Positions 1 to 62,205 of a stretch of DNA of 64,000 nucleotides are shown piece after piece. The notes under the pieces are model-generated. The model saw only the letters and a program-made list of their open reading frames with translations. It had not been told where the DNA came from and did no database searches. This DNA comes from Deinococcales bacterium (lineage in GTDB: Bacteria > Deinococcota > Deinococci > Deinococcales > JAAFIG01). The position numbers were made by a program, and so were the translations under genes. Position 1 is the stretch's first letter; each line of letters starts with the position of its first letter. The stretch is taken from contig JANNVX010000106.1 of NCBI GenBank assembly GCA_031414595.1, positions 1-64,000 on the forward strand, given 5' to 3'.

Positions 1-32
1 ACCATAAACACGCACCTGACGGGCATGGTCGC
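1..32 (-). repeat. GCGACC...GGTCAAGAA mini-element, copy A (cut by window edge)
   Basis: The reverse complement reads GCGACCATGCCCGTCAGGTGCGTGTTTATGGT, matching the copies at 53460, 62097 and 62166. It abuts GTAGGGACAG (33-42, minus strand). Confidence 0.8.
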
Positions 33-93
33 CTGTCCCTACAAAAAGGGCATAAAAATGTATTTTGTAGGGGCGAACCCCCGTGTTCGCCCT
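33..93. repeat. Back-to-back pair of GTAG-type REP-like hairpins
   Basis: CTAC at 39-42, a spacer, then GTAGGGGCGAAC-CCCCGT-GTTCGCCCT at 67-93. Same layout as 53403-53505. Confidence 0.75.
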
Positions 94-163
94 GCTTTTC
101 TGATATTCGGTTCTAGGATTTTGGACTTTTCGGAGGCTCTATGGCATAGGTCATTTTGTTGCG

Positions 164-204
164 TACCACTCGAGGCGCTGGGCGTTCTACCACTCGAGGC
201 GCTG
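164..204. repeat. 17-bp direct duplication at the 3' end of the aldo/keto reductase gene
   Basis: TACCACTCGAGGCGCTG at 164-180 and 188-204 (period 24). Confidence 0.85.
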
Positions 205-1179
205 TTTAGACCAACCACTCGAGTTCAAAAAATTCGCCACCGCACTGCCAGTTGGCACAAGCGCATCACAAGCAATTCGGAGTTCGTCGGATAAATTCAT
301 CTCGAGGACAGGCAAGTAATTTTGTAATTGTTCTACAGTGCGCGGTCCAATAATTGGTGCTGTCACACCCGCTTGGTCTTTGACCCACAGCACCGCCAAT
401 TGCACAGGGTCATAGCCATGTTCCCGAGCCAAAGCCACAAACGCATTACCGATACTAACGGCTTTTTGATTCACGCGGTCAGCGTAAATCCCGCCGCGCA
501 GCACCGCCCTAGAGTCTTTACTTGGGTTTTCGTAACGCCCTGCCAGCATTCCCATTGCCAAAGGTGACCACGGCAATATCGCCAAATTGTATTTTTGTGC
601 CATTGGCAAAAGCTCGTTTTCAATGCGTCGGTCAAGTAAATTGTACGGTGGTTGTTCTGAAACAAATTGCACCCAATTTTTGGTTTGCGCTATATGTATT
701 CCCTCGAGAATCCGCCAAGTCGGAGCGGTACTGCACCCGATATAACGCACCCAACCACGCTGTACCAAATCATTGAGTGCCGACAGGGTTTCTTCGAGTG
801 GGGTATCATCGAGTCGGTGCAACTGGTACAAATCAATATACTCTGTACCTAAGCGCTTTAGGCTGTCCTCACAGGCTTTAAGAATATGTTTTCTCGAGTT
901 TCCACGGTCATTTGCGCCAGTCCCTGTTGGGTAATGCACTTTTGTGGCAATTACTGCTTGGTCACGGCGTTTTAACTGTTTTAAGGTCTGCCCAAGAATT
1001 CGTTCGGCTTCGCCATTTTTGTAACTGTTGCTGGTGTCAAATAAATTGATTCCCGCGTCCAGTGCTACCCTAATCATTTGCGCCGACTCGAGTTCGGAAG
1101 TGGGATTGAGGAAATTATCTGTTCCCAAAGCCAGAGGAGCAATCCGAACGCCAGTACGACCAAAAGCACGGTAATTCAT
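187..1179 (-). CDS. Aldo/keto reductase
   Basis: [45 protein letters not shown] and WSPLAMG motifs. Confidence 0.93.
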
Positions 1180-1213
1180 GGCTAAGTATACTCAATCCTA
1201 GTGAGTTATTCGG

Positions 1214-1241
1214 CTATGAGCTATGAGTTATGAGCCATGAG
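1214..1241. repeat. Heptamer tandem repeat (YYATGAG)x4
   Basis: CTATGAG CTATGAG TTATGAG CCATGAG; a related array lies at 26112. Confidence 0.8.
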
Positions 1242-1304
1242 AAAAATTGTCCTAGACGTTATACTGAAGAAAATTCAAACTGTATCTGCACATCAAAAAA
1301 TCCG

Positions 1305-1862
1305 CTAGACAGCTAAATCCTCTTGATAATTGGCATTCAAAAACAACTGGCTCGAGAAATACGGCTCGAGTTCTGCCGATTCAACAATCCGCACTGAAAG
1401 TGCATCGGTGTTCTGCCACCAAGCAGTCAATCTTAACTGCTCTCGAGACAAAGCAGCTTGTACCAACCCCAAACAATTTTTTGAATATATCGCCGCCAGA
1501 GGCTCGAGTTGCTCGTTTTTATTTTTTGGAATGACAATATCTGCTTCAAACTGCCCAAGAAACTGCCAGTAAGCAGCACTTAAATTTGGCATATCACAAG
1601 CCATGACTGCTACCCTGTCCGACAAAGCAGACTCGAGGGCTGTTGCAAGCCCGTAAAGCGCTCCCGCAAATGGTTTTTTGTCTTTTATTACTCGAGCCGA
1701 AGTTTGCACCGCCTGACCAATCACCAGCACATCTTCAAGGGAAGAAAAACTCGAGAGCGCCCACTCGAGCAAAGTCCTGCCTTGCCAGATAAATTCGGCT
1801 TTATGGCTTCCAAAACGGCTCGAACGCCCTCCAGTTAGCACAGCCCCAGACAAACCCTTCAT
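1305..1862 (-). CDS. mobA: Molybdenum cofactor guanylyltransferase
   Basis: VLTGGRSSRFGSHKA, ACDMP, EPLAAIY and FLNANY motifs. Confidence 0.88.
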   Translation of the reverse strand: MKGLSGAVLTGGRSSRFGSHKAEFIWQGRTLLEWALSSFSSLEDVLVIGQAVQTSARVIKDKKPFAGALYGLATALESALSDRVAVMACDMPNLSAAYWQFLGQFEADIVIPKNKNEQLEPLAAIYSKNCLGLVQAALSREQLRLTAWWQNTDALSVRIVESAELEPYFSSQLFLNANYQEDLAV

Positions 1863-2569
1863 TTTTTGCTAATCACAAAAGCCAGTAAGGTTGTACCAGC
1901 CGTCCAAAAAAATTGCCTGACCAAATGCGGAATTAAATTACTGTCATCCCATGCAAATAAGCTCGGCATGACCGCCACCGCCACTTGCGAAAAACTCGAG
2001 CAGGCAAAAGCAATCGAAAGACTGCGTAAAACCCGTCCGATGCTTCCGCCAGCGAAATCTTGGCTTTGCATAATGAATAAACTGGTCAAAAATAAACCTG
2101 TGGTTTGATAAACGATTCTAAGTATTGGTGGTTGAAACAAAATAATAAACAAGACAGACAGCAAAATCGCTATCGCTGCCGCAATCAGAATAATTTGCAA
2201 GGCAAAACCTTTTTTGTACATCCCTTGTCGCTCGAGCAGTAAAGGCAAAGCAAGACTGGCAAGCAAAAAAATCAGTGCGCCAAGAATACTTAAAGGTGAC
2301 TCGAGCAGAGAACCCAGCCCAGTTAGCACTGCCAAATCAGATAAGCCAATAATCAGCATCCCAATAGAAAATCCTAAAATCGTTTGTTGCCATGCTTTTG
2401 GGGTGCGGGTGGAAATTAAGTAAAGTAAATAGACTGCTAGAAAATCGGTGGTGATTGTACCCAGTAAAAGTATCATGCGCTGGTCAGTGATTGCCCCAAC
2501 GAACAGGAAACCCCAAGTTACTAAAATAAAAATCCATTGCAACGGCGGAACTGTCCGAACAATTTGCAT
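1859..2569 (-). CDS. Hypothetical multi-pass membrane protein
   Basis: About 7-8 hydrophobic segments. Its stop overlaps the mobA start, and a TAGTAT box precedes the ATG. Confidence 0.75.
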   Translation of the reverse strand: MQIVRTVPPLQWIFILVTWGFLFVGAITDQRMILLLGTITTDFLAVYLLYLISTRTPKAWQQTILGFSIGMLIIGLSDLAVLTGLGSLLESPLSILGALIFLLASLALPLLLERQGMYKKGFALQIILIAAAIAILLSVLFIILFQPPILRIVYQTTGLFLTSLFIMQSQDFAGGSIGRVLRSLSIAFACSSFSQVAVAVMPSLFAWDDSNLIPHLVRQFFWTAGTTLLAFVISKK

Positions 2570-2603
2570 ACTTTAGATACTAACAAAATGATAAACTAAA
2601 GAT

Positions 2604-3551: not shown

Positions 3552-3652
3552 AAGTTTTACAGCTAACCTTGGTATTTGCCTCGAGCCACACAACAGGCGA
3601 ATAGTTACAGATTAAACACTTTTGGCAAGTAGAGACTGTGCTAAAGTCTTTT

Positions 3653-6559: not shown

Positions 6560-6570
6560 ACTGATTTTTT

Positions 6571-24481: not shown

Positions 24482-24532
24482 AAGGCAGTTTAGCTCGAGA
24501 CAGAGGAAAGAGGAAGCGCGAATAGCCCAACA

Positions 24533-24600
24533 GCGACCCAGCCCCGTCAGGTGGCGTTTTAGCGACCCACGCCCGAAGCAGCCGTGTTTTTGGTCAAGAA
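24533..24600 (+). repeat. Two nested mini-element copies (B truncated, C complete)
   Basis: GCGACCCAGCCCCGTCAGGTGGCGTTTTA (24533-24561) followed directly by GCGACCCACGCCCGAAGCAGCCGTGTTTTTGGTCAAGAA (24562-24600). Confidence 0.8.
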
Positions 24601-24661
24601 GTGTTCGCCCTGTGACAGTTCATGTTTTGGAATTCCGCAAATCGGGAAGTTATTTCTGGAT
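24601..24661. repeat. 61-bp dispersed repeat (REP half plus flank), inverted copy of 53353-53413
   Basis: Its reverse complement matches 53353-53413 with one mismatch. Confidence 0.9.
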
Positions 24662-50200: not shown

Positions 50201-50359
50201 GCCAGCCGAAACAAAGTTCAAAGTGCTGTCCACACTTTTTTGTAAATTCTCGAGTTGCCCAAGCACAAAATAACCGTACATGTCGGAGTCTTGGAGCATT
50301 AAAGGCGAGTGCATCATCACCGAGCCAGCCGGATAAAGATAGGGAGGTTGATTGTCCAT
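47267..50359 (-). CDS. Fusion: acetoacetate-decarboxylase-like domain + FAD-dependent oxidoreductase
   Basis: N-terminal half has GRELFGYPK. C-terminal half has VLGGGVG, WRLGGKGAS, EHGLHIWFGFY and GDW...GCVEAA. Start placed at ATG 50359. Confidence 0.82.
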   Translation of the reverse strand: MDNQPPYLYPAGSVMMHSPLMLQDSDMYGYFVLGQLENLQKSVDSTLNFVSAGKLRFQVLSPYVLLTFTRVQHAYSQYPIDEDKGWIQETDIITWIMVGQMDAANKLERVFFYPFHIWVNDTMALINGRELFGYPKYDCQYTMPEPGSDPLNCTLNVKAFEPFSSSTEIAWLPLLEVSAIHTNRPHRPVKDFLTLIKEMLELLKTLPNFLDVSIVGWADLVSMLLVPRIDQIFLKQFPDSAGEKAVYQAVLAAPARIDKIHSVALLGYDYQVTLHQVASFPLADSLGLSLGTQTAILPFNLNFDFSVPAGEVLHDNSRLAPKKIAVLGGGVGSMTAAYYLTNQAGWQDQYEITVYQLGWRLGGKGASGRNAAFGQRIEEHGLHIWFGFYENAFAMIQEAYATLNRPAGAPLATWQDAFKPHDYIVLTEYIEENWKIWNLEFPKNKDTPGSSPESLGLLQAAKLLWTWISTWIHQAHEASAQPVLSSAIQHPDWLHQLAATAEKDVQDLAGDARVAVLALEGVFANLQNHQDRSWISAALRGIKKWLEHFLTQKLESNDTLRRIFICLDLGITVLIGILEDGVLEHGFDIINNIDFKNWLTKHGANQEFTVDSAPVRGFYDLVFAYENGDFSKPNAEAGTLLRAMMLIGLAYKGSIMYKMQAGMGDTVFSPLYQVLQARGVKFKFFHQVNELIPTKNSISSIKLTQQVHVSSGIEQYQPLVYVKGLACWGSTPNYDQILPEEAALLQANNINLESSWSNWGTVYQEHFGQPLPSITLEQGKDFDQIIFGISKGALSSLCPQLLEQSQALSTMNNAVQTVATQAYQVWLTKDLAELGWTYQPNGQQPVLSGYTEPFDTWAAMDQLLIREDWKAGNQDPKNVSYFCSALPVASYPPFTDSSFPAVIAAQVKQNAINQLQNQMQPLMPEAANNGAFHWDWLTDSSSAIGQDRFNSQYWRANIDPSEQYVLSVVNSTATRLETNQSGFDNLYLTGDWIKTGLNAGCVEAAVMAGMQTSRAMTGYPQIIKGEKDQR

Positions 50360-50441
50360 ACTTAGTTGTACCAGAAAAACCAAGGTAAGGCGTTTGGGTA
50401 CATGCTTCATAGAACTCAAAAATCAGCTATACTGCACTACC

Positions 50442-52115
50442 ATGAAGCAGCATTGGCAAATCCATAATTTAGGATACTTGCTTTTGCTATTGTTATTTTT
50501 GTCCCAAGAAGTCTTGGCGGCGACAGACTTTAGTCAAATTGAACGAATTGACTTAAGCAACAAAGGTGTTTTGTACCGCGCCGATACCACCCAAGTACCC
50601 AGCACAGAATCGCAAATAGACGCATGGCGTAAAAGCCTAACCCCAGTTCGTCAAGTCAGTTTAACAGGTGGTTCATACTGGTTTTTAGCCGACATCAAGA
50701 ACACCACCTTGTACCGCAATTGGGTTTTTGATCCGTATGGCACACTGATTAACACCATAGATGCCTATATTTTTAGCAGTGATGGTACAATCCGCAAACT
50801 CGAGACAGGCTATCAACGAAAATTACCCTATAGTCTGCATTATGGACAAAACATTTCACTCGAGCCAAATCGTACTTATCGTTTATTGGTGCTGCTGCAA
50901 AGCCCATACTTTGCTTCACAACCCGGCTTTCGGGTCATGCCCCAAGAAGAGTACCAACAACATGTGCTGCTCGAGAATTTCTTGGTCATTGCGGCGCTGG
51001 GTGCAATTTTGTGCTTGGCTTTATACAATCTTTTTATTTTCTCGAGTACCCGCGATAAGAGTCTGCTTTATTACGCACTTTACTTAGGTGTGACTTTTAT
51101 GGGTTGGGCATGGACTTTTCATATTCCCACAGCCCTGTTTGATTGGCATACCCTCCAGTGGCATTACCTTTGGTTTTTCTTAATTCCAATCACCAGCACC
51201 CTTTTTTACTTACAATTTTTACAAGTCAAAACATGGTCGCCTTTGCTGTATAAACTCAGTTGGGGCAATATTATTTTATCGGCGCTGCTGCTTCCCTCGA
51301 GTTTTCTGGCGATTTCGTACACCCACACCCTTGCGACCCTTTGTATCAGCATTCAACTGACCCTTGCCCTGATTTGTGGCGTGATTAGCTGGCGACGTGG
51401 TTTTCGCCCTGCTCGGTACTTTGTGCTTGCCTTTGTTGCGCTGCTAATACCGGGCTTATTTATTTTACCTGCCAATGTCGGTTTAATCCCAGACCTGCTC
51501 GAGAATGCCGAACTCTTAACCCTCTTAGGCACAACCTTGGACGGTTTACTGCTTGCCTTTGCGCTTGCCGAAAGAATCCGTACCCTACAAGCCGAACGCG
51601 ATGCCTCGCTGATTCGTGTCACCCAAGCCCTTGCTCTTGCCAACACCGACAGCATGACGGGTATTGGCAACCGCCATGCTTTTGATGCAGCGCTACAAGT
51701 GGCTTTTGCAAAAACCCCAGACCAAAGCGAAGCCGAGCAATTTATGCTGATGCTCATAGATTTAGACGGCTTAAAACGAATTAACGATCAATACGGTCAT
51801 GCTCGAGGTGATGATTTACTGCGCTCTTTTGCCTCTGCCTTAAAAGCCCTAGAATCCCAAGGTATCTCGAGTTTTCGTTTGGGTGGCGATGAATTTACTT
51901 TAATTACCCAACGCAAAAACGAAAAGACCTTGCGTCAAGCCATTTACCGCATCGAAAAAGAATTGCGTGAAGATGGTTTTGCCGATTTTGGTGCAAGTGT
52001 TGGGGTGGCGTATGGTTCTGAACACCAAAAATCTACCGAGGTTTTTAGTATTGCCGATGAACGAATGTACCAAGACAAAGCATTACGAAAAACAGGTCGC
52101 GCCACCGCAACGTAA
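50442..52115 (+). CDS. 7TMR-DISMED2 / 7TM-DISM / GGDEF diguanylate cyclase
   Basis: Signal peptide, periplasmic domain with YWF, LALYNLF..YY 7TM start, then TDSMTGIGNR, DLDGLK.IND.YGH..GD and RLGGDEF. Confidence 0.92.
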   Translation: MKQHWQIHNLGYLLLLLLFLSQEVLAATDFSQIERIDLSNKGVLYRADTTQVPSTESQIDAWRKSLTPVRQVSLTGGSYWFLADIKNTTLYRNWVFDPYGTLINTIDAYIFSSDGTIRKLETGYQRKLPYSLHYGQNISLEPNRTYRLLVLLQSPYFASQPGFRVMPQEEYQQHVLLENFLVIAALGAILCLALYNLFIFSSTRDKSLLYYALYLGVTFMGWAWTFHIPTALFDWHTLQWHYLWFFLIPITSTLFYLQFLQVKTWSPLLYKLSWGNIILSALLLPSSFLAISYTHTLATLCISIQLTLALICGVISWRRGFRPARYFVLAFVALLIPGLFILPANVGLIPDLLENAELLTLLGTTLDGLLLAFALAERIRTLQAERDASLIRVTQALALANTDSMTGIGNRHAFDAALQVAFAKTPDQSEAEQFMLMLIDLDGLKRINDQYGHARGDDLLRSFASALKALESQGISSFRLGGDEFTLITQRKNEKTLRQAIYRIEKELREDGFADFGASVGVAYGSEHQKSTEVFSIADERMYQDKALRKTGRATAT

Positions 52116-52140
52116 CAGGTCGCGCCACCGCAACGTAACA
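52091..52140. repeat. Perfect 23-bp tandem duplication spanning the GGDEF gene stop codon
   Basis: AACAGGTCGCGCCACCGCAACGT twice, then AACA. Confidence 0.95.
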
Positions 52141-52183
52141 CAGGACTTGTTTTTCCCAAGCAAGCATGTATAAACTTATTTTG

Positions 52184-52268
52184 GTCAACGGGAGTGCCGT
52201 CCTTAAAAACGCGGCTGAGAAATATCCCCTGAACCTGACGCGGTTAATACCGCCGTAGGGAGCGTGAC
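52184..52268 (+). ncRNA. TPP riboswitch
   Basis: GGGAGTGC...GCTGAGA..ATCCC.TGAACCTGA..CGG.TAATACCG.CGTAGGGA consensus, upstream of a thiamine SBP gene. Confidence 0.95.
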
Positions 52269-52329
52269 TGGACACTCGAGACACTTGAGGGTCTGACGCT
52301 TCCTCTTTCCCAAAGAAAGGGGATTTTTT

Positions 52330-53352
52330 ATGAAAAAAGTAGTTCTGGTTGGTATAATGGCATTGGCAGCAGGATTCTCGAGCGCTCAGCAACGCACTTT
52401 AACGGTTGTGACCCACGATTCATTTAATTTAAGTAAAGAAATCGTGCAGGGCTTCGAGACTCGAGAAAATATCAAGCTCGCCTTTATTAAAGGTGGCGAC
52501 GCGGGGGCAATGACCAATCGCCTTATCTTGACCGCACAAAACCCAATTGCCGATGCAGTCTACGGGATTGATAACACCTTATTGGCTCGAGCCTTAAACG
52601 CGGGTATCTTTGAACCTTACCGCCCAAAAGCTGCCGCCTTACTCGAGAAGAACACGCTTCTGGACAGCAAATGGCGTATCAGTCCAGTGGATTATGGCTA
52701 TGTCGCCCTCAATTATGACTTGGCATGGTTTGAAAAAAATAAATTGGCACTACCAAAAACCCTCGAGGATTTAACCAAACCCACCTACAAGGGCTTACTG
52801 GTTGTCGAAAACCCTGCGACCTCGAGTCCGGGACTGGCTTTTTTACTTTCGACCATTAAGCACTTTGGGGAGACTCGAGCTTTTGCCTTCTGGGAAGCCC
52901 TAAAGAAAAACGATCTTAAAGTTACAAGTGGCTGGGAAACTGCCTACTACACCGATTTTTCTCGCAATGGTGGCTCGAGACCAATTGTCGTTTCGTATGC
53001 TTCAAGTCCAGCCGCCGAAGTTTTTTATGGCGACGGGAAAACCCCAAGCACCGCCAATCTGCTCCTGCCCGGCTCGAGTTTCTTGCAAATCGAAGGGGTA
53101 GCAGTTCTAAAGGGTACAAAAAACCCAGACCTCGCCCAGAAATTTGTTGACTTTATGCTCGAGCCAAATACCCAAGCCGATATTCCAACTCAAATGTGGG
53201 TCTATCCAAGCCGAAAAGATATTGCGCTGCCAGATGTCTTTAAGTTCGCCGAAAAACCTGCTCAAAGCTCGAGCCTGTCGCCAAGCACCATTGCGAAAAA
53301 CGAGAAGCGCTGGGTGCAACGTTTTGTTGAAGTGGTACTGCAAAACCGTTAA
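52330..53352 (+). CDS. thiB: Thiamine ABC transporter substrate-binding protein
   Basis: VVTHDSF, GIDN, DYGYV..NYD, PATSSPGLAF, GW..AY and VVSYASSP motifs; TPP riboswitch upstream. Confidence 0.93.
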   Translation: MKKVVLVGIMALAAGFSSAQQRTLTVVTHDSFNLSKEIVQGFETRENIKLAFIKGGDAGAMTNRLILTAQNPIADAVYGIDNTLLARALNAGIFEPYRPKAAALLEKNTLLDSKWRISPVDYGYVALNYDLAWFEKNKLALPKTLEDLTKPTYKGLLVVENPATSSPGLAFLLSTIKHFGETRAFAFWEALKKNDLKVTSGWETAYYTDFSRNGGSRPIVVSYASSPAAEVFYGDGKTPSTANLLLPGSSFLQIEGVAVLKGTKNPDLAQKFVDFMLEPNTQADIPTQMWVYPSRKDIALPDVFKFAEKPAQSSSLSPSTIAKNEKRWVQRFVEVVLQNR

Positions 53353-53505
53353 ATCCAGAAATAACTTCTCGATTTGCGGAATTCCAAAACATGAACTGTC
53401 ACAGGGCGAACACAAGGTTCGCCCCTACAGAACAATGTTTTTTCGTAGGGGCGATGCTTGCGACCATGCCCGTGAGGTGCATCTTATGGTCAAGAAGTCA
53501 TCGCC
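53353..53505. repeat. REP doublet with 61-bp shared flank and an inserted mini-element (copy D, 53460-53496)
   Basis: AGGGCGAAC-ACAAG-GTTCGCCCCTAC, a spacer, then GTAGGGGCGATGCTT[GCGACC...GGTCAAGAA]GTCATCGCC. Confidence 0.85.
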
Positions 53506-53587
53506 TTGCGATTCACGGATGTTAATTTCGGACAATTCCTAAGCAGTGGTACTAGAACTTGCCCCACCACTCGAGTATTGTGCTTAT

Positions 53588-54016
53588 ATGATTCGACAGG
53601 CTACCCTTTTTGACCTAGAGACCATCTTGCCACTCTTTGATGCCTACCGCCAATTTTACAAACAAGCCCCTGATTTAGACGGCGCAAGGGTGTACTTAAA
53701 AGCCAGACTCGAGAATGGTGAGACCACGATTTTTATTGACCAAAGCAACTCGGCTTTTGCGCTGCTGTACGACACTTTCTCGAGTGTCCCAATGCAGCGC
53801 TTAACCATTCTGAACGATTTGTACACCAAGCCCGAAGCTCGAGGACAAGGACTTGGGACTGCTCTAATTCAGGCTTCTCGAGAACATGCCCTAAAAATGC
53901 AGTCAGTGTTTTTACGGCTTCGCACCGCCCAAGATAATCTAAGCGCCCAAAGTGTCTATGAAAAAATTGGATTTGTCAAAGACGACGTGTACCTGACCTA
54001 CAACCTTAAGCCGTAA
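53588..54016 (+). CDS. GNAT acetyltransferase
   Basis: LFDAYRQFY, LNDLY...ARGQGLG..L and N..AQ..YEK.GF motifs. Confidence 0.9.
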   Translation: MIRQATLFDLETILPLFDAYRQFYKQAPDLDGARVYLKARLENGETTIFIDQSNSAFALLYDTFSSVPMQRLTILNDLYTKPEARGQGLGTALIQASREHALKMQSVFLRLRTAQDNLSAQSVYEKIGFVKDDVYLTYNLKP

Positions 54017-55154
54017 GTATCCCAATGCGCCTGACTGCCTCGGCAATTTGCTCCAAACTACAGGCATAAGAAAGGCGCACCTTGCCAAATGCCCTAAAAT
54101 CCGTACCGGGGACAACCGCAACTTTGGCTTGCTCGAGAATAATTCTGGCAGCTTCGGTTTCGTCGGTGTGAATGCGGGTGGTGTCTGCCAGCACATAAAA
54201 TGCGCCATCTGGGGTTGGGGTCGGGCAACCAATCGCGTTTAAGCCAGCCACAATCGCATTGCGGCGTTCAAAAAAAGCGGCTCTAGCACTTTCAATATAG
54301 GCTTTGCTATCGCTTAGGGCAGCTATCGTTGCCCATTGTGCAATGCTGTTGGCGCTGCTGGTGGTCTGCCCTTGAATTGCGTCCATGGCTTTAATCACGT
54401 GGGCTGGCGCAGCCGCAAAACCAATCCGCCATCCCGTCATGCTGTAGGCTTTGCTTGCGCCGTTAATCGTAATCACCCGCTCAGGGTTGAATGTTGCCGC
54501 ACTGATGGGTAATGCCCCTGTGTACGTGATGTGTTCGTACATTTCATCGGTCATCACCCAGAGGTCGTGCTTTTCTGCCAATTTCATAATCTCAGCGATG
54601 GTGGTGTCGGAATAAACCACACCTGACGGATTACTTGGGCTATTAAGAATAATCATCTTGGTTTTAGCCGTCACAGCCTTCTCGAGCGCCCCGAGTTCCA
54701 ACTGATAGCCATTGCCCGCATCGGTATCCACAAAAACTGGAACACCACCAAACATTTGGACTTGCTCGGGGTATGTGACCCAGAAGGGGGCTGGAATAAT
54801 CACTTCGTCGCCGAGGTTAATCAGGGCAAAACAAGCGTTATAAAGGGCTTGTTTACCGCCACCTGTGACTTGAATTTGGTTGATGCCATACTCGAGGTTA
54901 TTCTCGCGCTTGAACTTTGCAGCAATTGCTTCGCGCAGTTCTGGTACGCCAAGACTCGGGGTGTACTTGGTCTTGCCCATTTTTAAGGCTTCCCGAGCCG
55001 CATCTTTAATGTGTTCAGGGGTATCAAAGTCTGGTTCGCCGACCGACATCGAAATAATGTCTACACCAGAGCGTTTTAATTCCATGGCTCGAGCCGTTAC
55101 TGCAACGGTACTCGAGGCTTTCAGTTTGGTGGTGGCAACGGATAATGGTTTCAT
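54006..55154 (-). CDS. Aspartate aminotransferase (class I/II)
   Basis: VGEPDFDTP, GGKQAL, NSPSNPSG, DEMY and SKAYSMTGWRIG motifs. Confidence 0.93.
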   Translation of the reverse strand: MKPLSVATTKLKASSTVAVTARAMELKRSGVDIISMSVGEPDFDTPEHIKDAAREALKMGKTKYTPSLGVPELREAIAAKFKRENNLEYGINQIQVTGGGKQALYNACFALINLGDEVIIPAPFWVTYPEQVQMFGGVPVFVDTDAGNGYQLELGALEKAVTAKTKMIILNSPSNPSGVVYSDTTIAEIMKLAEKHDLWVMTDEMYEHITYTGALPISAATFNPERVITINGASKAYSMTGWRIGFAAAPAHVIKAMDAIQGQTTSSANSIAQWATIAALSDSKAYIESARAAFFERRNAIVAGLNAIGCPTPTPDGAFYVLADTTRIHTDETEAARIILEQAKVAVVPGTDFRAFGKVRLSYACSLEQIAEAVRRIGILTA

Positions 55155-55172
55155 TTCGGGGTAGTATAATCT
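55155..55172. promoter_or_regulatory. Overlapping bidirectional -10 boxes for two leaderless genes
   Basis: The 18-bp gap between divergent ATGs contains TAGTATAAT (TATACT on the minus strand). Confidence 0.6.
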
Positions 55173-55595
55173 ATGAAACAAGCCCTTGCCCATATTGCCC
55201 TTGTGGTACGTGATTACGACGAGGCGATTGCGTTTTACACCCAAAAACTTGGTTTTATACTGCTCGAGGACTCATACCAGCCAGAGCAAGATAAACGCTG
55301 GGTGGTGGTTGCCCCTGCCAACTCGAGTGGGGCGACAATTTTACTGGCGAAGGCATCCGAACCCGAACAAGAAGCCTTTATTGGCAATCAAGCGGGTGGT
55401 CGGGTGTTTTTGTTTTTGGCAACCGATGATTTTGGGCGTGATTACCAAACCATGCTCAAGGAAGGTATCGAGTTTATTCGTCAACCCAAAACCCTCGAGT
55501 ACGGCACAGTGGCAGTCTTTAAGGATTTATATGGCAACTTATGGGATTTAATCGAGTATGCACCTAACCATCCGATGCGTGTTAGGTTGCTTTGA
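55173..55595 (+). CDS. VOC/glyoxalase family protein
   Basis: [16 protein letters not shown] and [17 protein letters not shown] motifs. Confidence 0.92.
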
Positions 55596-56688
55596 TGATT
55601 TCTATGTGACTGCTGACCTGCTCGAGCCGTTTCATATTTAAGCTCACGCCGATGCCGAAGCCTTCTGGAACGGGCATAAAACCGTTTGTTGCTTCGAGGG
55701 CTTCGTTGGTGATGTCGGCTTGGAAGTACCGACTGGCACTCGAGGTATCACCCGGTTTTGTATAATTTGGCAGGGTCGAAAGATGAATGTTGTGCGCTCT
55801 GCCAATCCCGCTTTCGTGCATTCCACCACACCAGACTGGCGCTCCAAATGAAGCCGCGACATCATGAACCCGCCGTGCCTCGAGATGCCCACCAACCCGT
55901 CCGACTTTAATGTTAATCACTCGCGCCGCCCCGATTTGCAAGGCTTTGCGACTGTCCCCAGCCGAGAGAATACTTTCGTCTAAGCAGATGGGGGTCTGTA
56001 ATTCTTTTTGGATTTGCTGATGGTCAAATAAATCATCAAATGCCAAAGGTTGCTCGAGATAATCGAGCTTGTACTGGTCGAGTTGGCGTAGCGTATTTAA
56101 GTCTCCGAGGGTATAGGCACTGTTGGCATCCACGGTCAGGTGGGCTTCGGGGAAGGCTTGGCGCACAGCTTTGACCACGGCTAAGTCATGGTTTGGTTTG
56201 ATTTTGAGTTTAATCCGTTTGTAGCCCTGCTCGAGGGCGGCACTTGTTTGTTCTAAGGTTTTGGCAATACTGCCAATGCCAAGGCTCACGCCGACTTCAA
56301 CACTGCGTTTTTGTCCACCGAGTAAAGTCCAGAGTGGTAATTGTAAAGACTTTGCCCAGCAATCCCAGAATGCCATTTCAAGCATCGCAAAAGCCATGCG
56401 ATTGCCACGCCAAATTCGCATTTCGTCAGATAAGGCTTGTGGATTGGCAAATTCGCGCCCCAGAACCTGCGGCAGCAGTGTATCACGCAGAAAACCAACT
56501 GCACCAACGATTGTTTCCTCGCGGTATTCGGGGGTGGCATCCATCACCCCTTCGGCGTAGCCTTCGATACCGTCTGCCCGAAGCCTTAAAAGTGGGAAAA
56601 TTTTATTGGTAATCACCGCATTGGAAAATTCAAAAGGATGAAGTAATGGCAAATTTACAATACGAATTTCTACTTGCTCGAGTTTCAT
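55582..56688 (-). CDS. N-succinyl/N-acylamino acid racemase / o-succinylbenzoate synthase (enolase superfamily)
   Basis: [32 protein letters not shown] and PGDTS.S motifs. Confidence 0.92.
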
Positions 56689-56698
56689 AGGTCTCCTT

Positions 56699-56738
56699 CC
56701 TCGCTATTCAAACACATCCCTCGCTATTCAAATACATC
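56699..56738. repeat. 20-bp tandem duplication spanning the RpiR gene stop codon
   Basis: CCTCGCTATTCAAACACATC / CCTCGCTATTCAAATACATC (one mismatch). Confidence 0.9.
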
Positions 56739-57533
56739 AAAGTCTTCGAGTAATGCTTCGAGTTCTTGTCGGCGGGTTGGGTCGGTGCGTTGGGCTGTGC
56801 CAATAATTAGTAAATGCGCGAGGCTCGAGATTAAACCAGTCGCGCCGTATTGTTGAATGGCTTGGCTAGGAACACGAATCACATGGTTGGCATGTGGGAC
56901 AAGTGGGGAGTTACCGTTGTCAGTAATCAGAATAAGTTTTGCACCTCTACTCTTTAGGGTTGTGGCAATCTGAGTGGTGGCTCGGGCGTAGCGGCGGGTG
57001 GCAAAGATAAGGAGTACGTCTTGGGGGCTGGTCTCGAGCAGGGCTTCTGGGCTGATGATGGCATTTGGCTCGAGCAGATGCACCCCATTTCGGACTCCAG
57101 ACAAGAGTTGATGGGTCAGTACGGCGTGTCCAAAGTTAGAGCGTGACCCCAAAATCCAAATTTGTTTGGCGCTAGCTAGGGTTTCACAGACAGCCTCGAG
57201 CAGGTTATCTGAGGTGCGGCTGAGTTCTTCTAAGTTCTGTTTTTCACGTGTCCAGTATTCGGCGAACAGTCCTTCTTTGCTTTCTGGCACACTTGGGGCT
57301 TGTTGCTCACGCAAGGCACGGCGTAAGTCGCGGCGTAAGTCTGGGTAGCCTTCAAAGCCGAGGCGTTGGGCAAATCGTGTGATGCTCGAGGCGCTAAGTT
57401 CAAGTTGGGCAGCCAGTTCTGCGCCAGTCAGTAGCGGGGCTTGGTCAAGGTTTGCCAGTAAATAGCCAGCGATTTGTGTGTCGGACGGTGAAAAGTCGGC
57501 GGTGTTGTGGTCTATGCGTTCGCGCAAATTCAT
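56724..57533 (-). CDS. RpiR/MurR family regulator (HTH + SIS)
   Basis: ELA....S.SSITRFAQRLGFEGY.DL, followed by an SIS domain with LITD..SP. Confidence 0.92.
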   Translation of the reverse strand: MNLRERIDHNTADFSPSDTQIAGYLLANLDQAPLLTGAELAAQLELSASSITRFAQRLGFEGYPDLRRDLRRALREQQAPSVPESKEGLFAEYWTREKQNLEELSRTSDNLLEAVCETLASAKQIWILGSRSNFGHAVLTHQLLSGVRNGVHLLEPNAIISPEALLETSPQDVLLIFATRRYARATTQIATTLKSRGAKLILITDNGNSPLVPHANHVIRVPSQAIQQYGATGLISSLAHLLIIGTAQRTDPTRRQELEALLEDFDVFE

Positions 57534-57579
57534 GGGTTGACCTCGAGAAAGGTATTCTAATGGCTTTTGTGGTCAAAAC

Positions 57580-57633
57580 TTGCAAAATAAATTGCAAACT
57601 GCTAGGCTAATCTAGCAAGATAAATTGCTAGAT
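57580..57633. promoter_or_regulatory. Two palindromic operators, probably for RpiR
   Basis: TTGCAA-AATAAA-TTGCAA and ATCTAGCAA-GATAAA-TTGCTAGAT, between the divergent rpiR and SBP genes. Confidence 0.65.
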
Positions 57634-57695
57634 GCAAGATAAGCGTCCGCCGACAGGCTGTTGTGGTTGATCGTCCTCGAGATACAAGGAGAACT

Positions 57696-59267
57696 ATGAA
57701 AAAACGTTTAGGTGCAGCCGCCGCGCTGCTCGGTCTGGGCTTACTGGCTGGTGTAACTGCCCAGAATTCACGCTCGAGTACCCTGATTTATGGCGGTGAT
57801 TTCTCGGGCTTAATCACCATAGACCCCGGTATGAGTTACGAATATGCTGGTAGCCTTGTGACCAACAATTTGTACGAAACACTGGTCAAATTTGAAGGCA
57901 CAGATTTAAGCACCTTAAAACCAAGTATTGCGGTGCGTTGGGTCACAAAGGACATGGGTGATGCTTGGAAAGTCACCTTTAATTTGCGGACTCAAAAATT
58001 TGCTTCGGGCAACCCAGTGACTGCCCAAGATGTGGTTTACAGCTTTGACCGAGCGATTGCCTTAAAAGGACCCGGTTCGTTTTTATTCACCAGTGTTGCC
58101 AATATGAAAGTCGGCAGTACCAAAGCGCTTAACAAAAGCACGGTCGAAGTGACCTTGCCAAAAACCGCCAGCCCAGCCGCGTTTCTAAATTTACTAACCT
58201 TTAACATCGGGGCAATTATAGACAGCGAAATGGTAAAAACCAAGGTTGAGAATAACGATTACGGGGCAGCTTGGTTAAAACGCAATTCGGCAGGTTCAGG
58301 ACCGTTTACGCTCAACCGTTGGGATCAAAACCAAAGCGTGGTCTTGGATGCCAATAAAAACTCGAGACTGATGCCTAAGTTATCGCGTGTGATTTTGCGT
58401 GAAATGAAAGAAGCCAATACCCAAAAAATTGCTCTCGAGAGCGAAGAAATTGATATTGCCGATAATTTAACCCCTGATATGATTAAACAAAAAGCCCTAG
58501 ATGCAAAATTTAATGTCTATAAAGCCGACAGCCTAAACTTGCAATACATCGGGATGAGCGCAAGCGAAACCAGCCCATTTAAGGATGCAAGGGTACGCCA
58601 AGCGGTGCGTTATGCGCTTGACCAAGACGGAATTATCAAAAGCCTGGCGGGAGGCAACGCCAAAAAAGTCCAAACCATCATCCCAGCTGGCTTATTTGGT
58701 TTTAATCCTGCCACACCGTACAATCTTGACCTCGAGAAAGCCAAAGGATTACTGAAAGCTGCCGGTAAAGAAAGTGGTTTTGAAGTGGATATGCTGACCC
58801 CCCAAGGCGCTTGTTTGGCGGGTGTTCCTTGTGCCGATTTAGCCGCTAAAATTCAGTCGGACTTGGCTAAAATCAGCCTTAAAGTCAACATCAAACAACT
58901 GGTGGATTCGGAACTCTATCCGCTTTACCGCGCCCAGAAAGCCAATATGGTTTTAGTGGATTGGTCGCCGGATTTTCCAGATCCGGACGGCAACGCCACA
59001 CCAATGTCTGATTTTGCAGCAAAAAGCCTTGCTTGGCGCAATTCTTGGAATAATCCTACCGCCGGTAAACTCGCCCAACAAGCCGCCCTCGAGCCAAACC
59101 CAGCCAAGCGTGCTGCCTTGTACAAGCAACTGACCGAACTGCAACTCGAAGATGGTCCTTTTGCGGTTTTGTACCAACCGACCGTTTCTGTGACCCTCAA
59201 TAAAATTGTGAAAGGCTACGAGCGTAACGCCCAAAACCAAATTCGCTTTGAAAAAATCTCCAAGTAA
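57696..59267 (+). CDS. Peptide/nickel ABC substrate-binding protein (family 5)
   Basis: Signal peptide; YETLV, F.SGNPVTA.DVVYS, GSGPF, VRQA...A.D and W.PD.PDP motifs; RBS AAGGAG. Confidence 0.92.
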   Translation: MKKRLGAAAALLGLGLLAGVTAQNSRSSTLIYGGDFSGLITIDPGMSYEYAGSLVTNNLYETLVKFEGTDLSTLKPSIAVRWVTKDMGDAWKVTFNLRTQKFASGNPVTAQDVVYSFDRAIALKGPGSFLFTSVANMKVGSTKALNKSTVEVTLPKTASPAAFLNLLTFNIGAIIDSEMVKTKVENNDYGAAWLKRNSAGSGPFTLNRWDQNQSVVLDANKNSRLMPKLSRVILREMKEANTQKIALESEEIDIADNLTPDMIKQKALDAKFNVYKADSLNLQYIGMSASETSPFKDARVRQAVRYALDQDGIIKSLAGGNAKKVQTIIPAGLFGFNPATPYNLDLEKAKGLLKAAGKESGFEVDMLTPQGACLAGVPCADLAAKIQSDLAKISLKVNIKQLVDSELYPLYRAQKANMVLVDWSPDFPDPDGNATPMSDFAAKSLAWRNSWNNPTAGKLAQQAALEPNPAKRAALYKQLTELQLEDGPFAVLYQPTVSVTLNKIVKGYERNAQNQIRFEKISK

Positions 59268-59272
59268 TTCTT

Positions 59273-59309
59273 AAACTCGAGGCGAGAGTCTCTCGCCTCG
59301 AGTTTTTTT
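59273..59309 (+). terminator. Terminator with CTCGAG stem
   Basis: AAACTCGAGGCGAGA-GTC-TCTCGCCTCGAGTTTTTTT. Confidence 0.85.
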
Positions 59310-59406
59310 ATGACCGTGAAACTCGAAGTTTAAGACGAATGCCAGTTTTTCCAGTTCAAGCATTAAAACACCATTAGCAAAGCCAAAATAGAGCCTATTC
59401 AGTTGT

Positions 59407-59444
59407 TTGACATTTATTCAATTATTCAATAGAGTAATTGAATA
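59407..59444 (+). promoter_or_regulatory. Promoter with ArsR-type operator
   Basis: TTGACA at 59407; palindrome TATTCAAT-AGAGTA-ATTGAATA at 59423-59444, touching the ATG. Confidence 0.7.
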
Positions 59445-60103
59445 TGAAACATACACAAAAACGCCAGTTCAAAGAAAAGTTGTACAGCCAATTTGCTCGA
59501 GTTGGTAAAGCCCTAGCCAATAATCATCGTTTAGAACTGCTTGAATTGCTTGGGCAAGCCGAACGCAGTGTAGAAATGCTGGCTCGAGAGACCGACCTTT
59601 CGGTGGCAAACGCCAGTCAGCATCTGCAAGTGCTGTACAAGGCTGGTTTACTTCAATACCGGCGTGAAGGAACGTTTATTTTTTATCAATTAGCCGATGG
59701 CGCATTTCTGCTCTGGCAATCGCTGCGTGACCTTGCCCAAAAACAAATAGCCGAGGTTGAACACTTGGTTGCCAGCCTTGAACGCGATGACCAAGCGATT
59801 GAACTCAAGGAATTGCAACTGCTAGAAGATATTGTCCTGCTCGATGTTCGTCCAATGAATGAATATATGGCTGGACACATCCCCAAAGCGATTTCAATGC
59901 CAATCATAGAACTCGAGATGCGACTTGAGATTCTGCCTAAAGCCTTTGAAATCGTGGCGTATTGTCGTGGACCGTTTTGTGTTTTTGCCGATGAAGCGGT
60001 GGCATTGCTGCGCTCACATGGTTTTCAAGCCCGAAGATTGGCATTGGGATTACCCGACTGGCAAATGGCTGGTTATCCTGTGCAAAAAGGAGTGGGCGCA
60101 TGA
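59444..60103 (+). CDS. ArsR-family regulator fused to a rhodanese domain
   Basis: RLELLELL.Q.ERSVE.LA...SVANASQHL, then DVRP..EY..GHIP and YCRGPFC motifs. Confidence 0.93.
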   Translation: MKHTQKRQFKEKLYSQFARVGKALANNHRLELLELLGQAERSVEMLARETDLSVANASQHLQVLYKAGLLQYRREGTFIFYQLADGAFLLWQSLRDLAQKQIAEVEHLVASLERDDQAIELKELQLLEDIVLLDVRPMNEYMAGHIPKAISMPIIELEMRLEILPKAFEIVAYCRGPFCVFADEAVALLRSHGFQARRLALGLPDWQMAGYPVQKGVGA

Positions 60104-60828
60104 TTTTTCGTCAGTATTTACACGATTCGCCCGCGATTGCCGCTTCTTATTTATTGGGTTGCGGTGGTCAAACAAGTGGCGCAATCATAGACCCAATCGG
60201 CGACATCCGCCCCTACTTAGAAGATGCGGCTCGGCTCGGCTTACGGATTTTATATGTCATAGACACCCATGTTCACGCCGATCACTTATCTAGCGCGAAA
60301 GAACTCTGTCAGCAAACCCAAGCCCAATATGTGCTGCACCAAAGTGTTCAAGCCACTTACCCATTTTATGCGGCTCGAGATGGTCAGCAACTGTTATTAG
60401 GCAATGTTGTGCTTGAATTATGGCACACCCCCGGTCATACACCAGAACACTTAAGTATTTTGGTGACAGATAAAACTCGAGCCACCGAGCCTTGGATGGT
60501 TTTAACAGGTCACACCTGTATGGTCGGTGACTTAGGACGTACCGAACTTGCCAGCAGCGCCGAAGATGGCGCTCGAGCCTTGTATCAGACGCTACAACAC
60601 CTAAAAACCCTGCCTGATTACCTCGAGATTTACCCCGGGGCGTTTAGTGGCTCGGTTTGCGGACGGCGTTTATCGGGTAAGCCCTCGAGTACGATTGGTT
60701 TTGAACGGCGTTACAATAAAGCCTTTGCGATCCAAACCGAAACCGAATTTATCGCCCTGATGCTCCAAGATATTCCGCCCCGCCCCGAAGGTTTTGAACA
60801 GATTCGTGCTTCTAATCTAGGTTTATGA
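60100..60828 (+). CDS. MBL-fold persulfide dioxygenase-like protein
   Basis: SYL.GC, DTHVHADH.S, TPGHTPEH, GS.CG and STIG.E motifs. Confidence 0.85.
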   Translation: MIFRQYLHDSPAIAASYLLGCGGQTSGAIIDPIGDIRPYLEDAARLGLRILYVIDTHVHADHLSSAKELCQQTQAQYVLHQSVQATYPFYAARDGQQLLLGNVVLELWHTPGHTPEHLSILVTDKTRATEPWMVLTGHTCMVGDLGRTELASSAEDGARALYQTLQHLKTLPDYLEIYPGAFSGSVCGRRLSGKPSSTIGFERRYNKAFAIQTETEFIALMLQDIPPRPEGFEQIRASNLGL

Positions 60829-62045
60829 AAATCCAATTGGGCTTACGTGAAAATGCCGCACAATTTGGACTGCTGATGCTGGTCAACGCCATGGTTGGTG
60901 GGATGATTGGTCTTGAACGGACAGTTTTGCCTTTAATTGCCTCGGAAGAATTTGGTTTTACTTCAAATACGGTCATTGTTGGTTTTATTGTCAGTTTTGG
61001 TTTAACAAAAGCCTTGGTCAACCTCATCAGTGGTGTTTTAGCAGACCGTTTTGGACGCAAAGCACTTTTGGTCTTTGGCTGGTTTTTTGGACTCCCCGTC
61101 CCATTTATTTTAATGTTCAGTACCAACTGGAATTGGATTCTGGTTGCCAATATTTTACTGGGAATCAATCAAGGTTTTACTTGGTCGGCAGCCGTGATGA
61201 TGAAAATAGATTTGGTTGGCGCAAAAAACCGTGGTTTTGCGGTTGGACTAAACGAATTTGCAGGCTACTTAGCGGTTGGTCTAACCGCTTGGCTGACCGG
61301 ATTTCTTGCCAGTACCTACGGCTTACGCCCAATTCCTTTTATTCCGGGGGTTGTGTATGCCGTGATTGGTTTATTCCTTTCGGGTTTTTTAATTCGGGAT
61401 ACTCGAGGGCATGTGCTGCTCGAGCAACAAAACCACCAATTGCCACAAGAAAACTTGTCTTTTCGTCAAATTTTTATGCGTACCTCATGGCAAACACCAC
61501 GCTTATTTGCAGCTTGTCAAGCAGGTTTGGTCAATAACTTAAACGATGCCCTGTCTTGGGGGATTTTCCCATTGTACTTTATCCGGCAAGGCGTGTCACT
61601 CGAGAATATCGGCTTGTTAAAACTGGTTTACCCCTTGGTTTGGAGTGTGCTGCAAATACCAATGGGCGCATTGGCTGACCGCATGAATCGGCAAACCTTG
61701 ATTGCTTGGGGAATGACTGTCCAGGCGGCTGGACTTGGCTTAATAATCCTTGGTTCTGGAATGACTGTTTGGCTGATTGCCACGATTTTACTGGGTTCTG
61801 GAACAGCCATGGTATACCCCACTTTAATTACCGTGGTCAGCGACACAAGCCAATTGTTTTGGCGAGCCAGAGCCTTGGGTGTTTATAGGTTTTGGCGTGA
61901 CATGGGTTATGCAGTCGGGGCATTGCTGGCAGGTACTATCGCCGATGCGCTTGGGTTTCGGTGGGCAATTGGTTTAATTGCTTTCCTCACGCTACTTTCT
62001 GGTTTGATTGTGGTTATCAAAAATCACAACGGGAATAGCACTTAA
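60825..62045 (+). CDS. MFS transporter
   Basis: 12 TM segments; LADRFGRK, GLNEFAGY and GVYRFWRD.GY motifs. Translationally coupled to the upstream gene. Confidence 0.9.
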   Translation: MKIQLGLRENAAQFGLLMLVNAMVGGMIGLERTVLPLIASEEFGFTSNTVIVGFIVSFGLTKALVNLISGVLADRFGRKALLVFGWFFGLPVPFILMFSTNWNWILVANILLGINQGFTWSAAVMMKIDLVGAKNRGFAVGLNEFAGYLAVGLTAWLTGFLASTYGLRPIPFIPGVVYAVIGLFLSGFLIRDTRGHVLLEQQNHQLPQENLSFRQIFMRTSWQTPRLFAACQAGLVNNLNDALSWGIFPLYFIRQGVSLENIGLLKLVYPLVWSVLQIPMGALADRMNRQTLIAWGMTVQAAGLGLIILGSGMTVWLIATILLGSGTAMVYPTLITVVSDTSQLFWRARALGVYRFWRDMGYAVGALLAGTIADALGFRWAIGLIAFLTLLSGLIVVIKNHNGNST

Positions 62046-62096
62046 GTACCTCCCCGAAATGTTTTAGGTGTTTTTCCTAAAACATTTTGCGACTAA

Positions 62097-62133
62097 GCGA
62101 CCACGCCCGAAGGTGCGCGTATGTGGTCAAGAA
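62097..62133 (+). repeat. Mini-element copy E
   Basis: GCGACCACGCCCGAAGGTGCGCGTATGTGGTCAAGAA. Confidence 0.85.
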
Positions 62134-62165
62134 AAGGAGTAAGGACAGCGTATCTCACGCTGGAA

Positions 62166-62205
62166 GCGACCCAAGCCCGTCAGGTGCTGCTTTAAGGGTC
62201 AAGAA
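62166..62205 (+). repeat. Mini-element copy F
   Basis: GCGACCCAAGCCCGTCAGGTGCTGCTTTAAGGGTCAAGAA. Confidence 0.85.

Follow-up and report, generated by a model that had tools for sequence, protein, structure and literature searches.

We analyzed a 64,000-nucleotide stretch of DNA (hereafter, the window), positions 1 to 64,000 of contig JANNVX010000106.1 in assembly GCA_031414595.1, that carries six copies of a very small structured repeat. A preliminary description, made from the letters of the window, had read this repeat as an undescribed non-autonomous element. The window is contig C106 of G000, the metagenome-assembled genome (MAG) of an uncultured Deinococcales bacterium, which comprises 4.49 Mb in 120 contigs with 47.2% G+C; other genomes, contigs, and loci are referred to below by G, C, and L numbers. 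The element consists of 5'-GC, an outer stem of 5 to 6 bp (GACCnn / n'n'GGTC), an inner hairpin (GCCCG, a GN(N)A loop, then GG(T)GC with a bulged T), a short internal loop on the 3' side, and a 3' tail, AAGA(A). Its core is 33 to 40 nt long, mostly 36 to 38 nt. All six copies named in the preliminary description (A to F) were recovered at the positions it gave, and, as it claimed, copies C, D, E, and F start with GCGACC and end with GGTCAAGAA. The claim of a fixed 3' end held in part: the end is shared, but the true end is GGTCAAGA plus a variable tail of 1 to 2 nt, which is A in most copies and also CA, C, T, TA, G, or GA, so that some copies end in AAGACA, AAGAC, AAGAT, AAGATA, or AAGAG(A) rather than following the canonical GCGACC...GGTCAAGAA.

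Copies A and D each sit in a repetitive extragenic palindrome (REP). Copy A (1..32, minus strand) comprises the first 32 nt of the element, truncated by the contig start, and lies within a GGGACAG-type REP whose arm goes on at 33-45. It matches model positions 1-33 in an nhmmer search (E 2.7e-7), its flanks are those of a 13-member composite cluster, gtagggacag|E|cacccctgtgtctgtcctg (where E between bars is the element), and empty paralogous REPs of the same type are present in the genome. Copy D (53460..53496, plus strand; covariance-model score 58.9 bits) interrupts the loop of the REP gtagGGGCGATG...CATCGCC (53445-53459 + 53497-53507) at CTT|GT. Removing it restores the REP hairpin, as originally proposed, and an empty paralogue of the same REP lies at C14:74032, with matching flanks of 35 and 24 nt. 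The REP split by D belongs to a composite repeat unit of 187 nt (53353..53539, plus strand), made up of this REP, one intact REP, and flanks. The intact REP, cagGGCGAAC-ACAAG-GTTCGCCcctac (53402..53428, plus strand), is of the GTAG type, and its loop is a preferred target, filled at ACAA|G in other REP copies. Paralogues of the 187-nt unit lie at G000 C49:217-402 and C82:43847-44032. At the orthologous site in three sister species (G004:C18, G005:C414, and G001:C262), the unit is missing as a block and its flanks (query 1-203 and 391-651) abut; one X5 contig skips 53353-53563.

Copies E (62097..62133, plus strand) and F (62166..62205, plus strand) are hosted by a second composite repeat unit of about 226 nt (62039..62264, plus strand), which corresponds to the repeats of query 340-565. 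E stands at gactaa|caggag, a site that is empty at C72:51908 and filled at the orthologous site in G005:C54. F, a member of the long subfamily with a GACCC/GGGTC stem, stands at ctggaa|tgacag, which is empty at C72:51876, C72:9913, and C82:36103 and filled in G005:C54. Paralogous units that lack E as well as F occur at C72:51821-51961, C72:9881-9913, and C82:36071-36103. The unit of D and the unit of E and F are thus themselves repeats. Contig joints that skip 37-41 nt, found in four DNA contig sets over 50000-64000, were considered as polymorphism at E and F and rejected: their sides measure only 20-31 nt and lie inside a multi-copy unit, and the joints probably come from the known paralogous empty units.

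The remaining two copies, B and C, lie in a stack at 24516-24612. The stack starts with a 17-nt 5' fragment of a sister family (family 2, described below), GCGCGAATAGCCCAACA (24516..24532, plus strand), which is broken in its hairpin loop at the start of copy B. Copy B (24533..24561, plus strand) is the 5' 29 nt of a GGCG-type element and ends in ..TTTA, the second self-insertion hot spot; its 3' remainder is missing. Copy C (24562..24600, plus strand) is full length and degenerate (nhmmer E 1.9e-5), folds poorly (z -0.13), and is followed by the 3' half of a REP (gtgttcgccctg, 24601-24612); read on the opposite strand, 24601-24661 matches the left part of the 187-nt unit that starts at 53353, with 98% identity. 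The covariance model takes 24533-24599 (B and C) as one interrupted element, and C had been described as interrupting B. The two copies do abut, but this is no simple nest. Three 5' parts (the family-2 fragment, B, and the full C) are stacked directly before the REP 3' half, and the 3' remainders of the family-2 fragment and of B, together with the REP 5' half, are all absent; rearrangement or recombination at an element fits this stack better than simple nesting does.

We assessed the two-tier fold in an alignment (A2) of 55 distinct short-subfamily copies from several genera. These copies are related by descent, and the counts given here are therefore of alignment cells rather than of events. 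In total, 97.1% of cells are paired, compared to 91.5 +/- 0.8% in shuffled alignments and 27-36% when the partners are slid. Compensatory cells number 28 against 10.4 +/- 2.3 in shuffles, a count matched by none of 500 shuffles. The covariation lies in two outer-stem pairs, one with AU 32, CG 20, GU 1, and other 2, and the second with UA 34, CG 6, AU 2, UG 2, and other 11. The original claim of covarying stems therefore stands for the outer stem, where the signal is strong and holds with 55 distinct copies, but not for the inner-stem extension (pairs 7-23 and 8-22), which we rejected because its 6 compensatory cells were reached by 149 of 500 shuffles, no better than chance. In one subfamily, GCCCC..GGTGGC, an inner G-C pair is turned into C-G. 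Loops have the form G-N-A or G-N-N-A, most commonly GTCA, which is not GNRA.

A looser regular expression returned 111 matches and with them the sister families, which differ in the outer stem. The GACC type accounts for 74 matches, and family 2 (GC-GA-NN / N'N'-GA-GC, where NN/N'N' is AC/GT, AT/AT, or GT/AC) for 22-23. Rarer types are GATTCn / nGAATC with 4 matches and GAACCC / GGGTTC, GCCC / GGGC, and GCCCC / CGGGT with 2 matches each. Intact family-2 copies read GCGCGAATAGCCCG..GGTGCT..GAGCAAGA. All sister families keep the 5' GCG, the GCCCG-loop-GGTGC hairpin, and the 3' AAGA(A), with the whole outer stem swapped. This swap is stronger evidence for the fold than the cell counts are.

We surveyed G000 for the element with several search methods. 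The pattern GCGACC N2-4 CCCG N14-22 GTCAAGA has 77 matches in the genome, compared to 0 for the reversed pattern, which is far more than chance would give, and a strict regular expression finds 46 copies. An nhmmer search gave 159 matches at E<10, of which 81 are full length, and a covariance model built from the 55 distinct copies gave 101 matches at E<=0.01, some of them spanning nested inserts. We searched the two flanks of the full copies separately, scored sites where they abut as empty, and obtained many such paralogous sites. Of 80 full copies with adequate flanks, one at C113 with a mutated 3' motif was dropped and 79 were parsed; these represent 51 unrelated flank contexts. Ten core sequences recur without change, each in 2-4 independent contexts. 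These contexts and a solo copy inside a gene (see below) show that the element does not occur only as a constant component of a single larger repeat, in line with the preliminary description.

In 35 filled/empty paralogous pairs the element is a precise insert with no duplicated target bases, as had been claimed from the window. Sites such as gcat|..AAGAA|gcc and gggag|..AAGAA|aggg leave no room even for a target duplication of 1 nt. This absence of duplication argues against a staggered cut of the DDE type, and we rejected a miniature inverted-repeat element of a DDE transposon on the same 35 pairs. Orthologous empty sites were also found at six loci by comparison within the genus, each filled in G000 and precisely empty in a sister species: C105+20921 (empty in G001), C109-33545 (empty in G001), C109-29505 (empty in G004 and filled in G005), C98-88032 (empty in G001 and G003), C98-90463 (empty in G007), and C105+48492, which is in a gene (empty in G001). 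At C109-33545, C109-29505, C98-88032, and C98-90463, the host REP is present without the element at the orthologous site. A further candidate, C49-25490 compared with G005 (L013), was not counted, since its flanks match only in part and the site may be a paralogue.

Copies of the element arise in two ways, through insertion of the element itself and through the spread of REPs and composite repeats that carry it. Thirteen copies, copy A included, belong to the composite gtagggacag|E|cacccctgtgtctgtcctg, in which the element occupies the 5' arm region of a GGGACAG-type REP; several contigs end in this composite. The contig ends at C39:50-86, C40:50-86, C50:8908-8939, and C106:1-32 all show the same REP and element with extended identical flanks; the assembly seems to break at this composite, which may belong to a still larger repeat. 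We also looked for an autonomous master copy, that is, split ends around an open reading frame (ORF), and all partial nhmmer matches were explained by nesting. At 36-40 nt, the element is too short to encode anything and must therefore be non-autonomous. Overall, we regard it as very probable that the element family is mobile and non-autonomous.

The insertion sites share a preference in sequence and in structure. Across the 51 contexts, the 5' flank carries A at -1 in 34, A at -2 in 33, and C at -3 in 27, and the base after the tail is mostly G. The target thus approximates CAA|G; the sites are diverse in sequence, and the element only prefers this motif. When the empty sites were rebuilt and folded as DNA, 28 of the 51 insertion points fell in a predicted hairpin loop, compared to 140 of 500 intergenic A|G sites chosen at random (odds ratio 3.1, Fisher p 1.7e-4). 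The typical position is one base ahead of the 3' arm, at the loop's 3' edge; in 14 contexts the insertion point is within a stem, mostly in REP arms. The element also inserts into itself, in its own inner loop at cccgaa|ggtg and in its internal loop at ..ttta|gggtc, and forms tandem arrays in which copies abut at AAGAA|GCGACC (L005, G006:C56 with four, G012:C299 with three, and G018:C43 with two). The same target rule explains the inner-loop, internal-loop, and tandem insertions, the last being at the element's own 3' boundary. Family 2 likewise inserts after A and before G, including into family-1 loops. A different host repeat, in which GGGTCGGGGATGAGGGTGG follows a hairpin CCCTTCTCCCGC..GCGGGAGAA, is repeatedly invaded at one spot, the 3' foot of the hairpin. 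Filled copies of this repeat occur at L179, L183, L185, L188, L189, and L192 (G011) and at G000 C73:7306; within G000, nine paralogues are empty and one is filled.

The six copies in the window had been described as intergenic; genome-wide, copies are not confined to intergenic DNA. Crude ORF calls put 16 copies inside ORFs; we checked five, and the claim made here covers those five only. These lie in Pfam-supported or long open frames without closing the frame, three of them together with a REP. Four are in the sense orientation: in metH (C72:45658-45694), in the linker between the S-methyltransferase and pterin-binding domains, with a REP; in an AMP-binding enzyme (C73:2518-2554), inside the domain, with a REP; in a TPR protein (C69:10600-10638), after the TPR region; and in a methylase-like ORF (C105:48492-48527). 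The fifth, antisense, lies inside the CT_C_D domain of a fused carboxyltransferase (C41:145811-145847). The copy in the methylase-like ORF is a solo copy of 36 nt without a REP, in codon phase 0, which adds 12 residues, and the G001 orthologue lacks exactly those 36 nt. Relative to neighboring genes, 27 copies have the same orientation and 18 the opposite (p 0.23, crude ORF calls); this lack of gene-orientation bias argues against insertion through transcripts.

The distribution of the element is narrow. The pattern is present in 16 of 18 other genomes of the same family (17 of 19 with G000), with up to 189 copies, and in none of 22 genomes from the order's four other families; the reversed-pattern control gave 0 in all genomes save one match in G040. 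The two element-free family genomes are G002 (same genus, 2.3 Mb, 82% complete) and G010 (genus g4, 91% complete). G002 also has no Y1_Tnp or RAYT-like matches (RAYT, REP-associated tyrosine transposase) and is much smaller than its sister genomes; it may represent a repeat-free lineage or a heavily filtered bin. In 140 genomes from four other families of the phylum, the covariance model gave a single weak match (25-35 bits) in each of 4, and in 73 genomes of genus g7 it found no family member, only 2 single weak matches. Viral contigs gave 120 pattern matches, none a true copy (best nhmmer E 0.012). A pattern scan of public genome contigs gave at least 121 loci. We examined the best 25 of 89 nhmmer matches to them; among those best 25, 22 had E<=2.5e-9, in 19 loci, all Deinococcales MAGs. 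The remaining 102 loci, without such a match, we read as chance matches in GC-rich genomes.

No catalogued family matched the element in Rfam, whether at the gathering threshold or at E<=10, or in our literature searches. A search of 61950-62350 against Rfam at E<=10 gave three unrelated sub-threshold matches, and a look-up of RNA data for 61000-64000 listed no data set. The sole match of the window at the gathering threshold lies away from the copies, a thiamine pyrophosphate (TPP) riboswitch (RF00059, 61 bits) at 52180-52279 on the plus strand.

We searched the 19 family genomes for enzymes that could move the element. RVT_1 is present in 5 of 19; in G000 its matches are at C82:67602-68216, in a 627-residue open frame, and at C69:107-538. 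Y1_Tnp is present in 16 of 19 and missing from the element-free G002 and G010 and from the incomplete G008. RAYT-like genes occur in 17 of 19, and G000 has two. The first of these (C98:106767-107468, minus strand, equal to L168:2265-2969) encodes 234 residues with HUH-like and Tyr motifs and has the hsdS-like and hsdM-like genes of a type I restriction-modification operon on either side; its best NCBIfam match, 'REP-associated tyrosine transposase', scores 62.9 bits and falls short of the 80-bit cut-off. The second (C109:4189-4776) has no REP upstream, whereas its orthologues in G006, G003, and G007 have one. When eight RAYT-like loci were scanned in a REPtron test, two full copies were found, both within the gene's flanking REP, and a composite of REP and element is conserved across species beside a RAYT-like gene. 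IS91-type Y2 transposases (PF04986) were detected in 0 of 19 genomes by a search whose sensitivity is unproven, as the control genomes were silent too. Overall, the phyletic pattern is compatible with HUH enzymes and not specific to them.

The earlier reading of the repeat as an undescribed non-autonomous structured element is supported by these results, every refuting condition named with it having come out in its favor, and we infer, as the preliminary description did, that the fold may act as single-stranded DNA or RNA and may be recognized by an enzyme. Our best explanation as a whole, mechanism included, is a mobile family of 36-40 nt moved as folded single-stranded DNA by an HUH-type enzyme, a proposal that we advance tentatively. 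A double-stranded circle of 37 bp is physically implausible because of DNA stiffness; this, the absence of target duplication, the rarity of reverse transcriptases, the conservation of the fold rather than of the outer-stem sequence, and the targeting of loops together point to folded single-stranded DNA and a nicking-joining enzyme. Taken separately, the single-strand DNA route is probable, and an HUH/Y1 enzyme as the mover is possible, with more doubt attached. Under this model, the element would move as a folded single strand of DNA, handled by a nuclease-ligase that acts in trans and nicks single-stranded loops at A|G. The head-to-tail junction AAGAA|GC would form a loop closed by the outer stem, and the preferred targets, a stem with a loop ending in ..AA|G, would mimic this junction; a natural tandem junction folds as the predicted junction hairpin (-2.4 kcal/mol). 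HUH enzymes are the class known to cut and reseal single strands at hairpins or next to them, and the most likely mover would be an HUH/Y1 single-strand nuclease of the RAYT-like or IS200 type, both of which occur in the lineage. It is a more speculative proposal, and an unlikely one, that the element uses a new transposition chemistry in which a loop-nicking enzyme excises or copies a dumbbell of ~37 nt, nicked at AAGAA|GC, and pastes it into junction-mimicking loops. If true, the element would be a minimal self-contained 'hairpin-into-loop' transposon.

Several observations weigh against this explanation. The searches for RVT_1, Y1_Tnp, RAYT-like, and Y2 genes linked no enzyme to the element. 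Six strong IS200-type tnpA genes in relatives have no copy closer than 1.5 kb, and neither their flanks nor their ends share anything with the element. G000 has ~80 copies with no IS200-type tnpA and RAYT-like genes only; the element-free G010 has RAYT-like genes, and none were found in the element-rich G005. The copies beside the RAYT-like gene in G006 and G003 sit in its flanking REP, and the G007 orthologue has a plain REP. Insertions of IS200/IS605 elements are biased to the lagging-strand template, and the copies split 20/20 relative to local GC skew and 15/19 relative to the gene-strand majority, in a 120-contig genome with a mean |skew| of 0.016, which makes this a weak test. The inner stem is nearly invariant, with almost no covariation signal, and predicted DNA fold energies are modest (-3.5 to -6.8 kcal/mol, z -0.1 to -1.8). 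RNA fold energies are -7.6 to -16 kcal/mol; predicted stability being modest in both cases, the case for the fold rests on covariation and not on energy. With respect to timing, the five loci open to comparison with the closest relative, G005, are each filled in the two genomes and thus give no sign of activity after that split. In IS200/IS605 elements such as IS608 and ISDra2, the transposase recognizes hairpins, in IS608 with an extrahelical base, and the left and right ends have separate subterminal hairpins, whereas the element described here is one two-tier hairpin. RAYT substrates carry GTAG or GTGG 0-2 nt 5' of the hairpin (PMC6006769); the element has no such tag, as its copies start with GCGACC after variable bases, and it is the host REPs that carry GTAG.

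Alternatively, the element may move as DNA by means of another class of enzyme, such as a structure-specific nuclease with a ligase, a topoisomerase-like enzyme, or a small serine or tyrosine recombinase with a 1-2-nt core (A|G). We consider this somewhat unlikely. No HUH gene is physically or exclusively linked to the element, IS91-type Y2 was not found in the 19 genomes (with silent controls), and both junctions are usually A|G, as a tiny crossover core would give; the CA and TA tail variants still end in A before G. However, general DNA stiffness makes the 37-bp double-stranded circle implausible here too, recombinases normally need longer conserved core sites while these targets share only ~3 nt, and no candidate gene of this kind was identified. 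An RNA-mediated route, in which a small structured RNA is copied back, or is spliced into transcripts and then reverse transcribed as reportedly proposed for the small dispersed repeats (SDRs) of cyanobacteria, would agree with the greater stability of the fold as RNA and with the sense orientation of four of the five in-gene copies. We find it improbable, given that RVT_1 occurs in 5 of 19 family genomes versus 17 of 19 for the element, that orientation relative to neighboring genes is unbiased (27 versus 18), and that the commonest loop, GTCA, is not GNRA and no Rfam family matches.

Two further alternatives were weighed. Selection for a motif beneficial to the host, for example a protein-binding site, a regulatory or stabilizing RNA hairpin, or a recombination signal, with mobility secondary, would account for the strict conservation of the inner hairpin and ends across several genera and for persistence in 16 of 18 sister genomes. 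Yet conserved ends and a conserved hairpin are also what a transposition substrate needs, the copies follow no positional or orientation rule relative to genes, they lie in coding regions and in other repeats, presence or absence is polymorphic at orthologous sites, and two family genomes have no element; we give this alternative little credence. Least credible of all is the view that the element has no independent mobility and is a passenger of REPs or composite units, or is spread by gene conversion between repeats. Thirteen copies do share one REP composite, D, E, and F do lie in repeat units (the 187-nt unit of D being absent as a block at orthologous sites), and the REP and element composite beside the RAYT-like gene is kept across species. 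A passenger, however, would not be expected in 51 unrelated flank contexts, inside other copies, or as a solo 36-nt insert in a gene without a REP at a site empty in G001, and its host REP would not be present without it at four orthologous sites; gene conversion requires flanking homology, which these sites lack.

Cyanobacterial repeats had been cited as a precedent; because the host is a Deinococcales bacterium, that precedent serves as an analogy only. Of described systems, the SDRs, REPs with their RAYTs, and IS200/IS605 elements come closest. SDR1-8 of Nostoc punctiforme and relatives, reportedly described by Elhai et al. in 2008, are said to be 21-27 nt long, with RNA intermediates favored. 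Like the SDRs as reported, the element is a very small non-coding repeat with a hairpin that shows compensatory changes, it inserts precisely into other repeats and into itself, and it has no mover assigned. In contrast to SDRs, it is 36-40 rather than 21-27 nt long, unrelated in sequence, and found in Deinococcota rather than Nostocaceae. The element targets hairpin loops (REPs), whereas SDRs target HIP1 or heptamer arrays, and it differs further in its two-tier fold, its fixed 5' GCG and 3' AAGA(A), and its in-frame copies in genes. SDRs are described as inserting into HIP1 and as confined to Nostocaceae (PMC5861425).

The resemblance to REPs and REPINs lies in short, GC-rich imperfect palindromes at high copy number without target duplication (PMC3733652, PMC6006769, and PMC3116915), and the element shares its genome with RAYT-like genes. 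REPs, too, can be located within genes (PMC3733652). Unlike a REP, the element does not flank RAYT genes in its own right, invades REP loops, and has a conserved single-stranded tail. With IS200/IS605 elements and their gene-less derivatives it shares the lack of target duplication and of DDE-type inverted terminal repeats, hairpin recognition, a target 5' flank resembling its own 3' end (CAA| versus GAA|), and the presence of Y1 genes in the lineage. It differs from them in being about ten times smaller and in having a degenerate and structural target, in which the 5' flank is a preference (C 27, A 33, and A 34 of 51); its ends are not like those of the resident tnpA elements at the six loci, and no strand bias was detected, given the weak skew. 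IS91-type elements target CAAG/GAAC without duplication, and the similarity of this target to CAA|G is a lead only. The D. radiodurans small non-coding repeats (SNRs) are reportedly much longer, at 60-215 bp. They come from the same phylum and are likewise mosaic or composite non-coding repeats at high copy number (PMC1978522). Rickettsia palindromic elements also lie in frame in genes that stay open; they are larger and restricted to Rickettsia, and self-nesting and loop targeting are not their hallmark (PMC3733652).

In searches of the literature, with most subscription journals outside their coverage, we found neither an element of this sort reported from Deinococcota nor any account of hairpins invading REP loops. 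The family is real, well-defined, and apparently undescribed, and in fact a small superfamily of very small structured mobile elements, among the smallest mobile elements seen. In practical terms, it breaks assemblies at contig ends, builds mosaic repeats, and has placed a 12-residue insert in a methylase-like protein with the reading frame unbroken. How repeats of less than 50 nt move has been an open question since the SDRs, and this family offers an unusually clean substrate definition. The ends are fixed, the hairpin is invariant and protein-sized, the outer stem covaries freely, the target follows a structural rule, sister families share the same machinery, and presence or absence is polymorphic between sister species. 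Considering all of these systems together, the kind of element is already known, being SDR-like and REP-like, and the variant is new.

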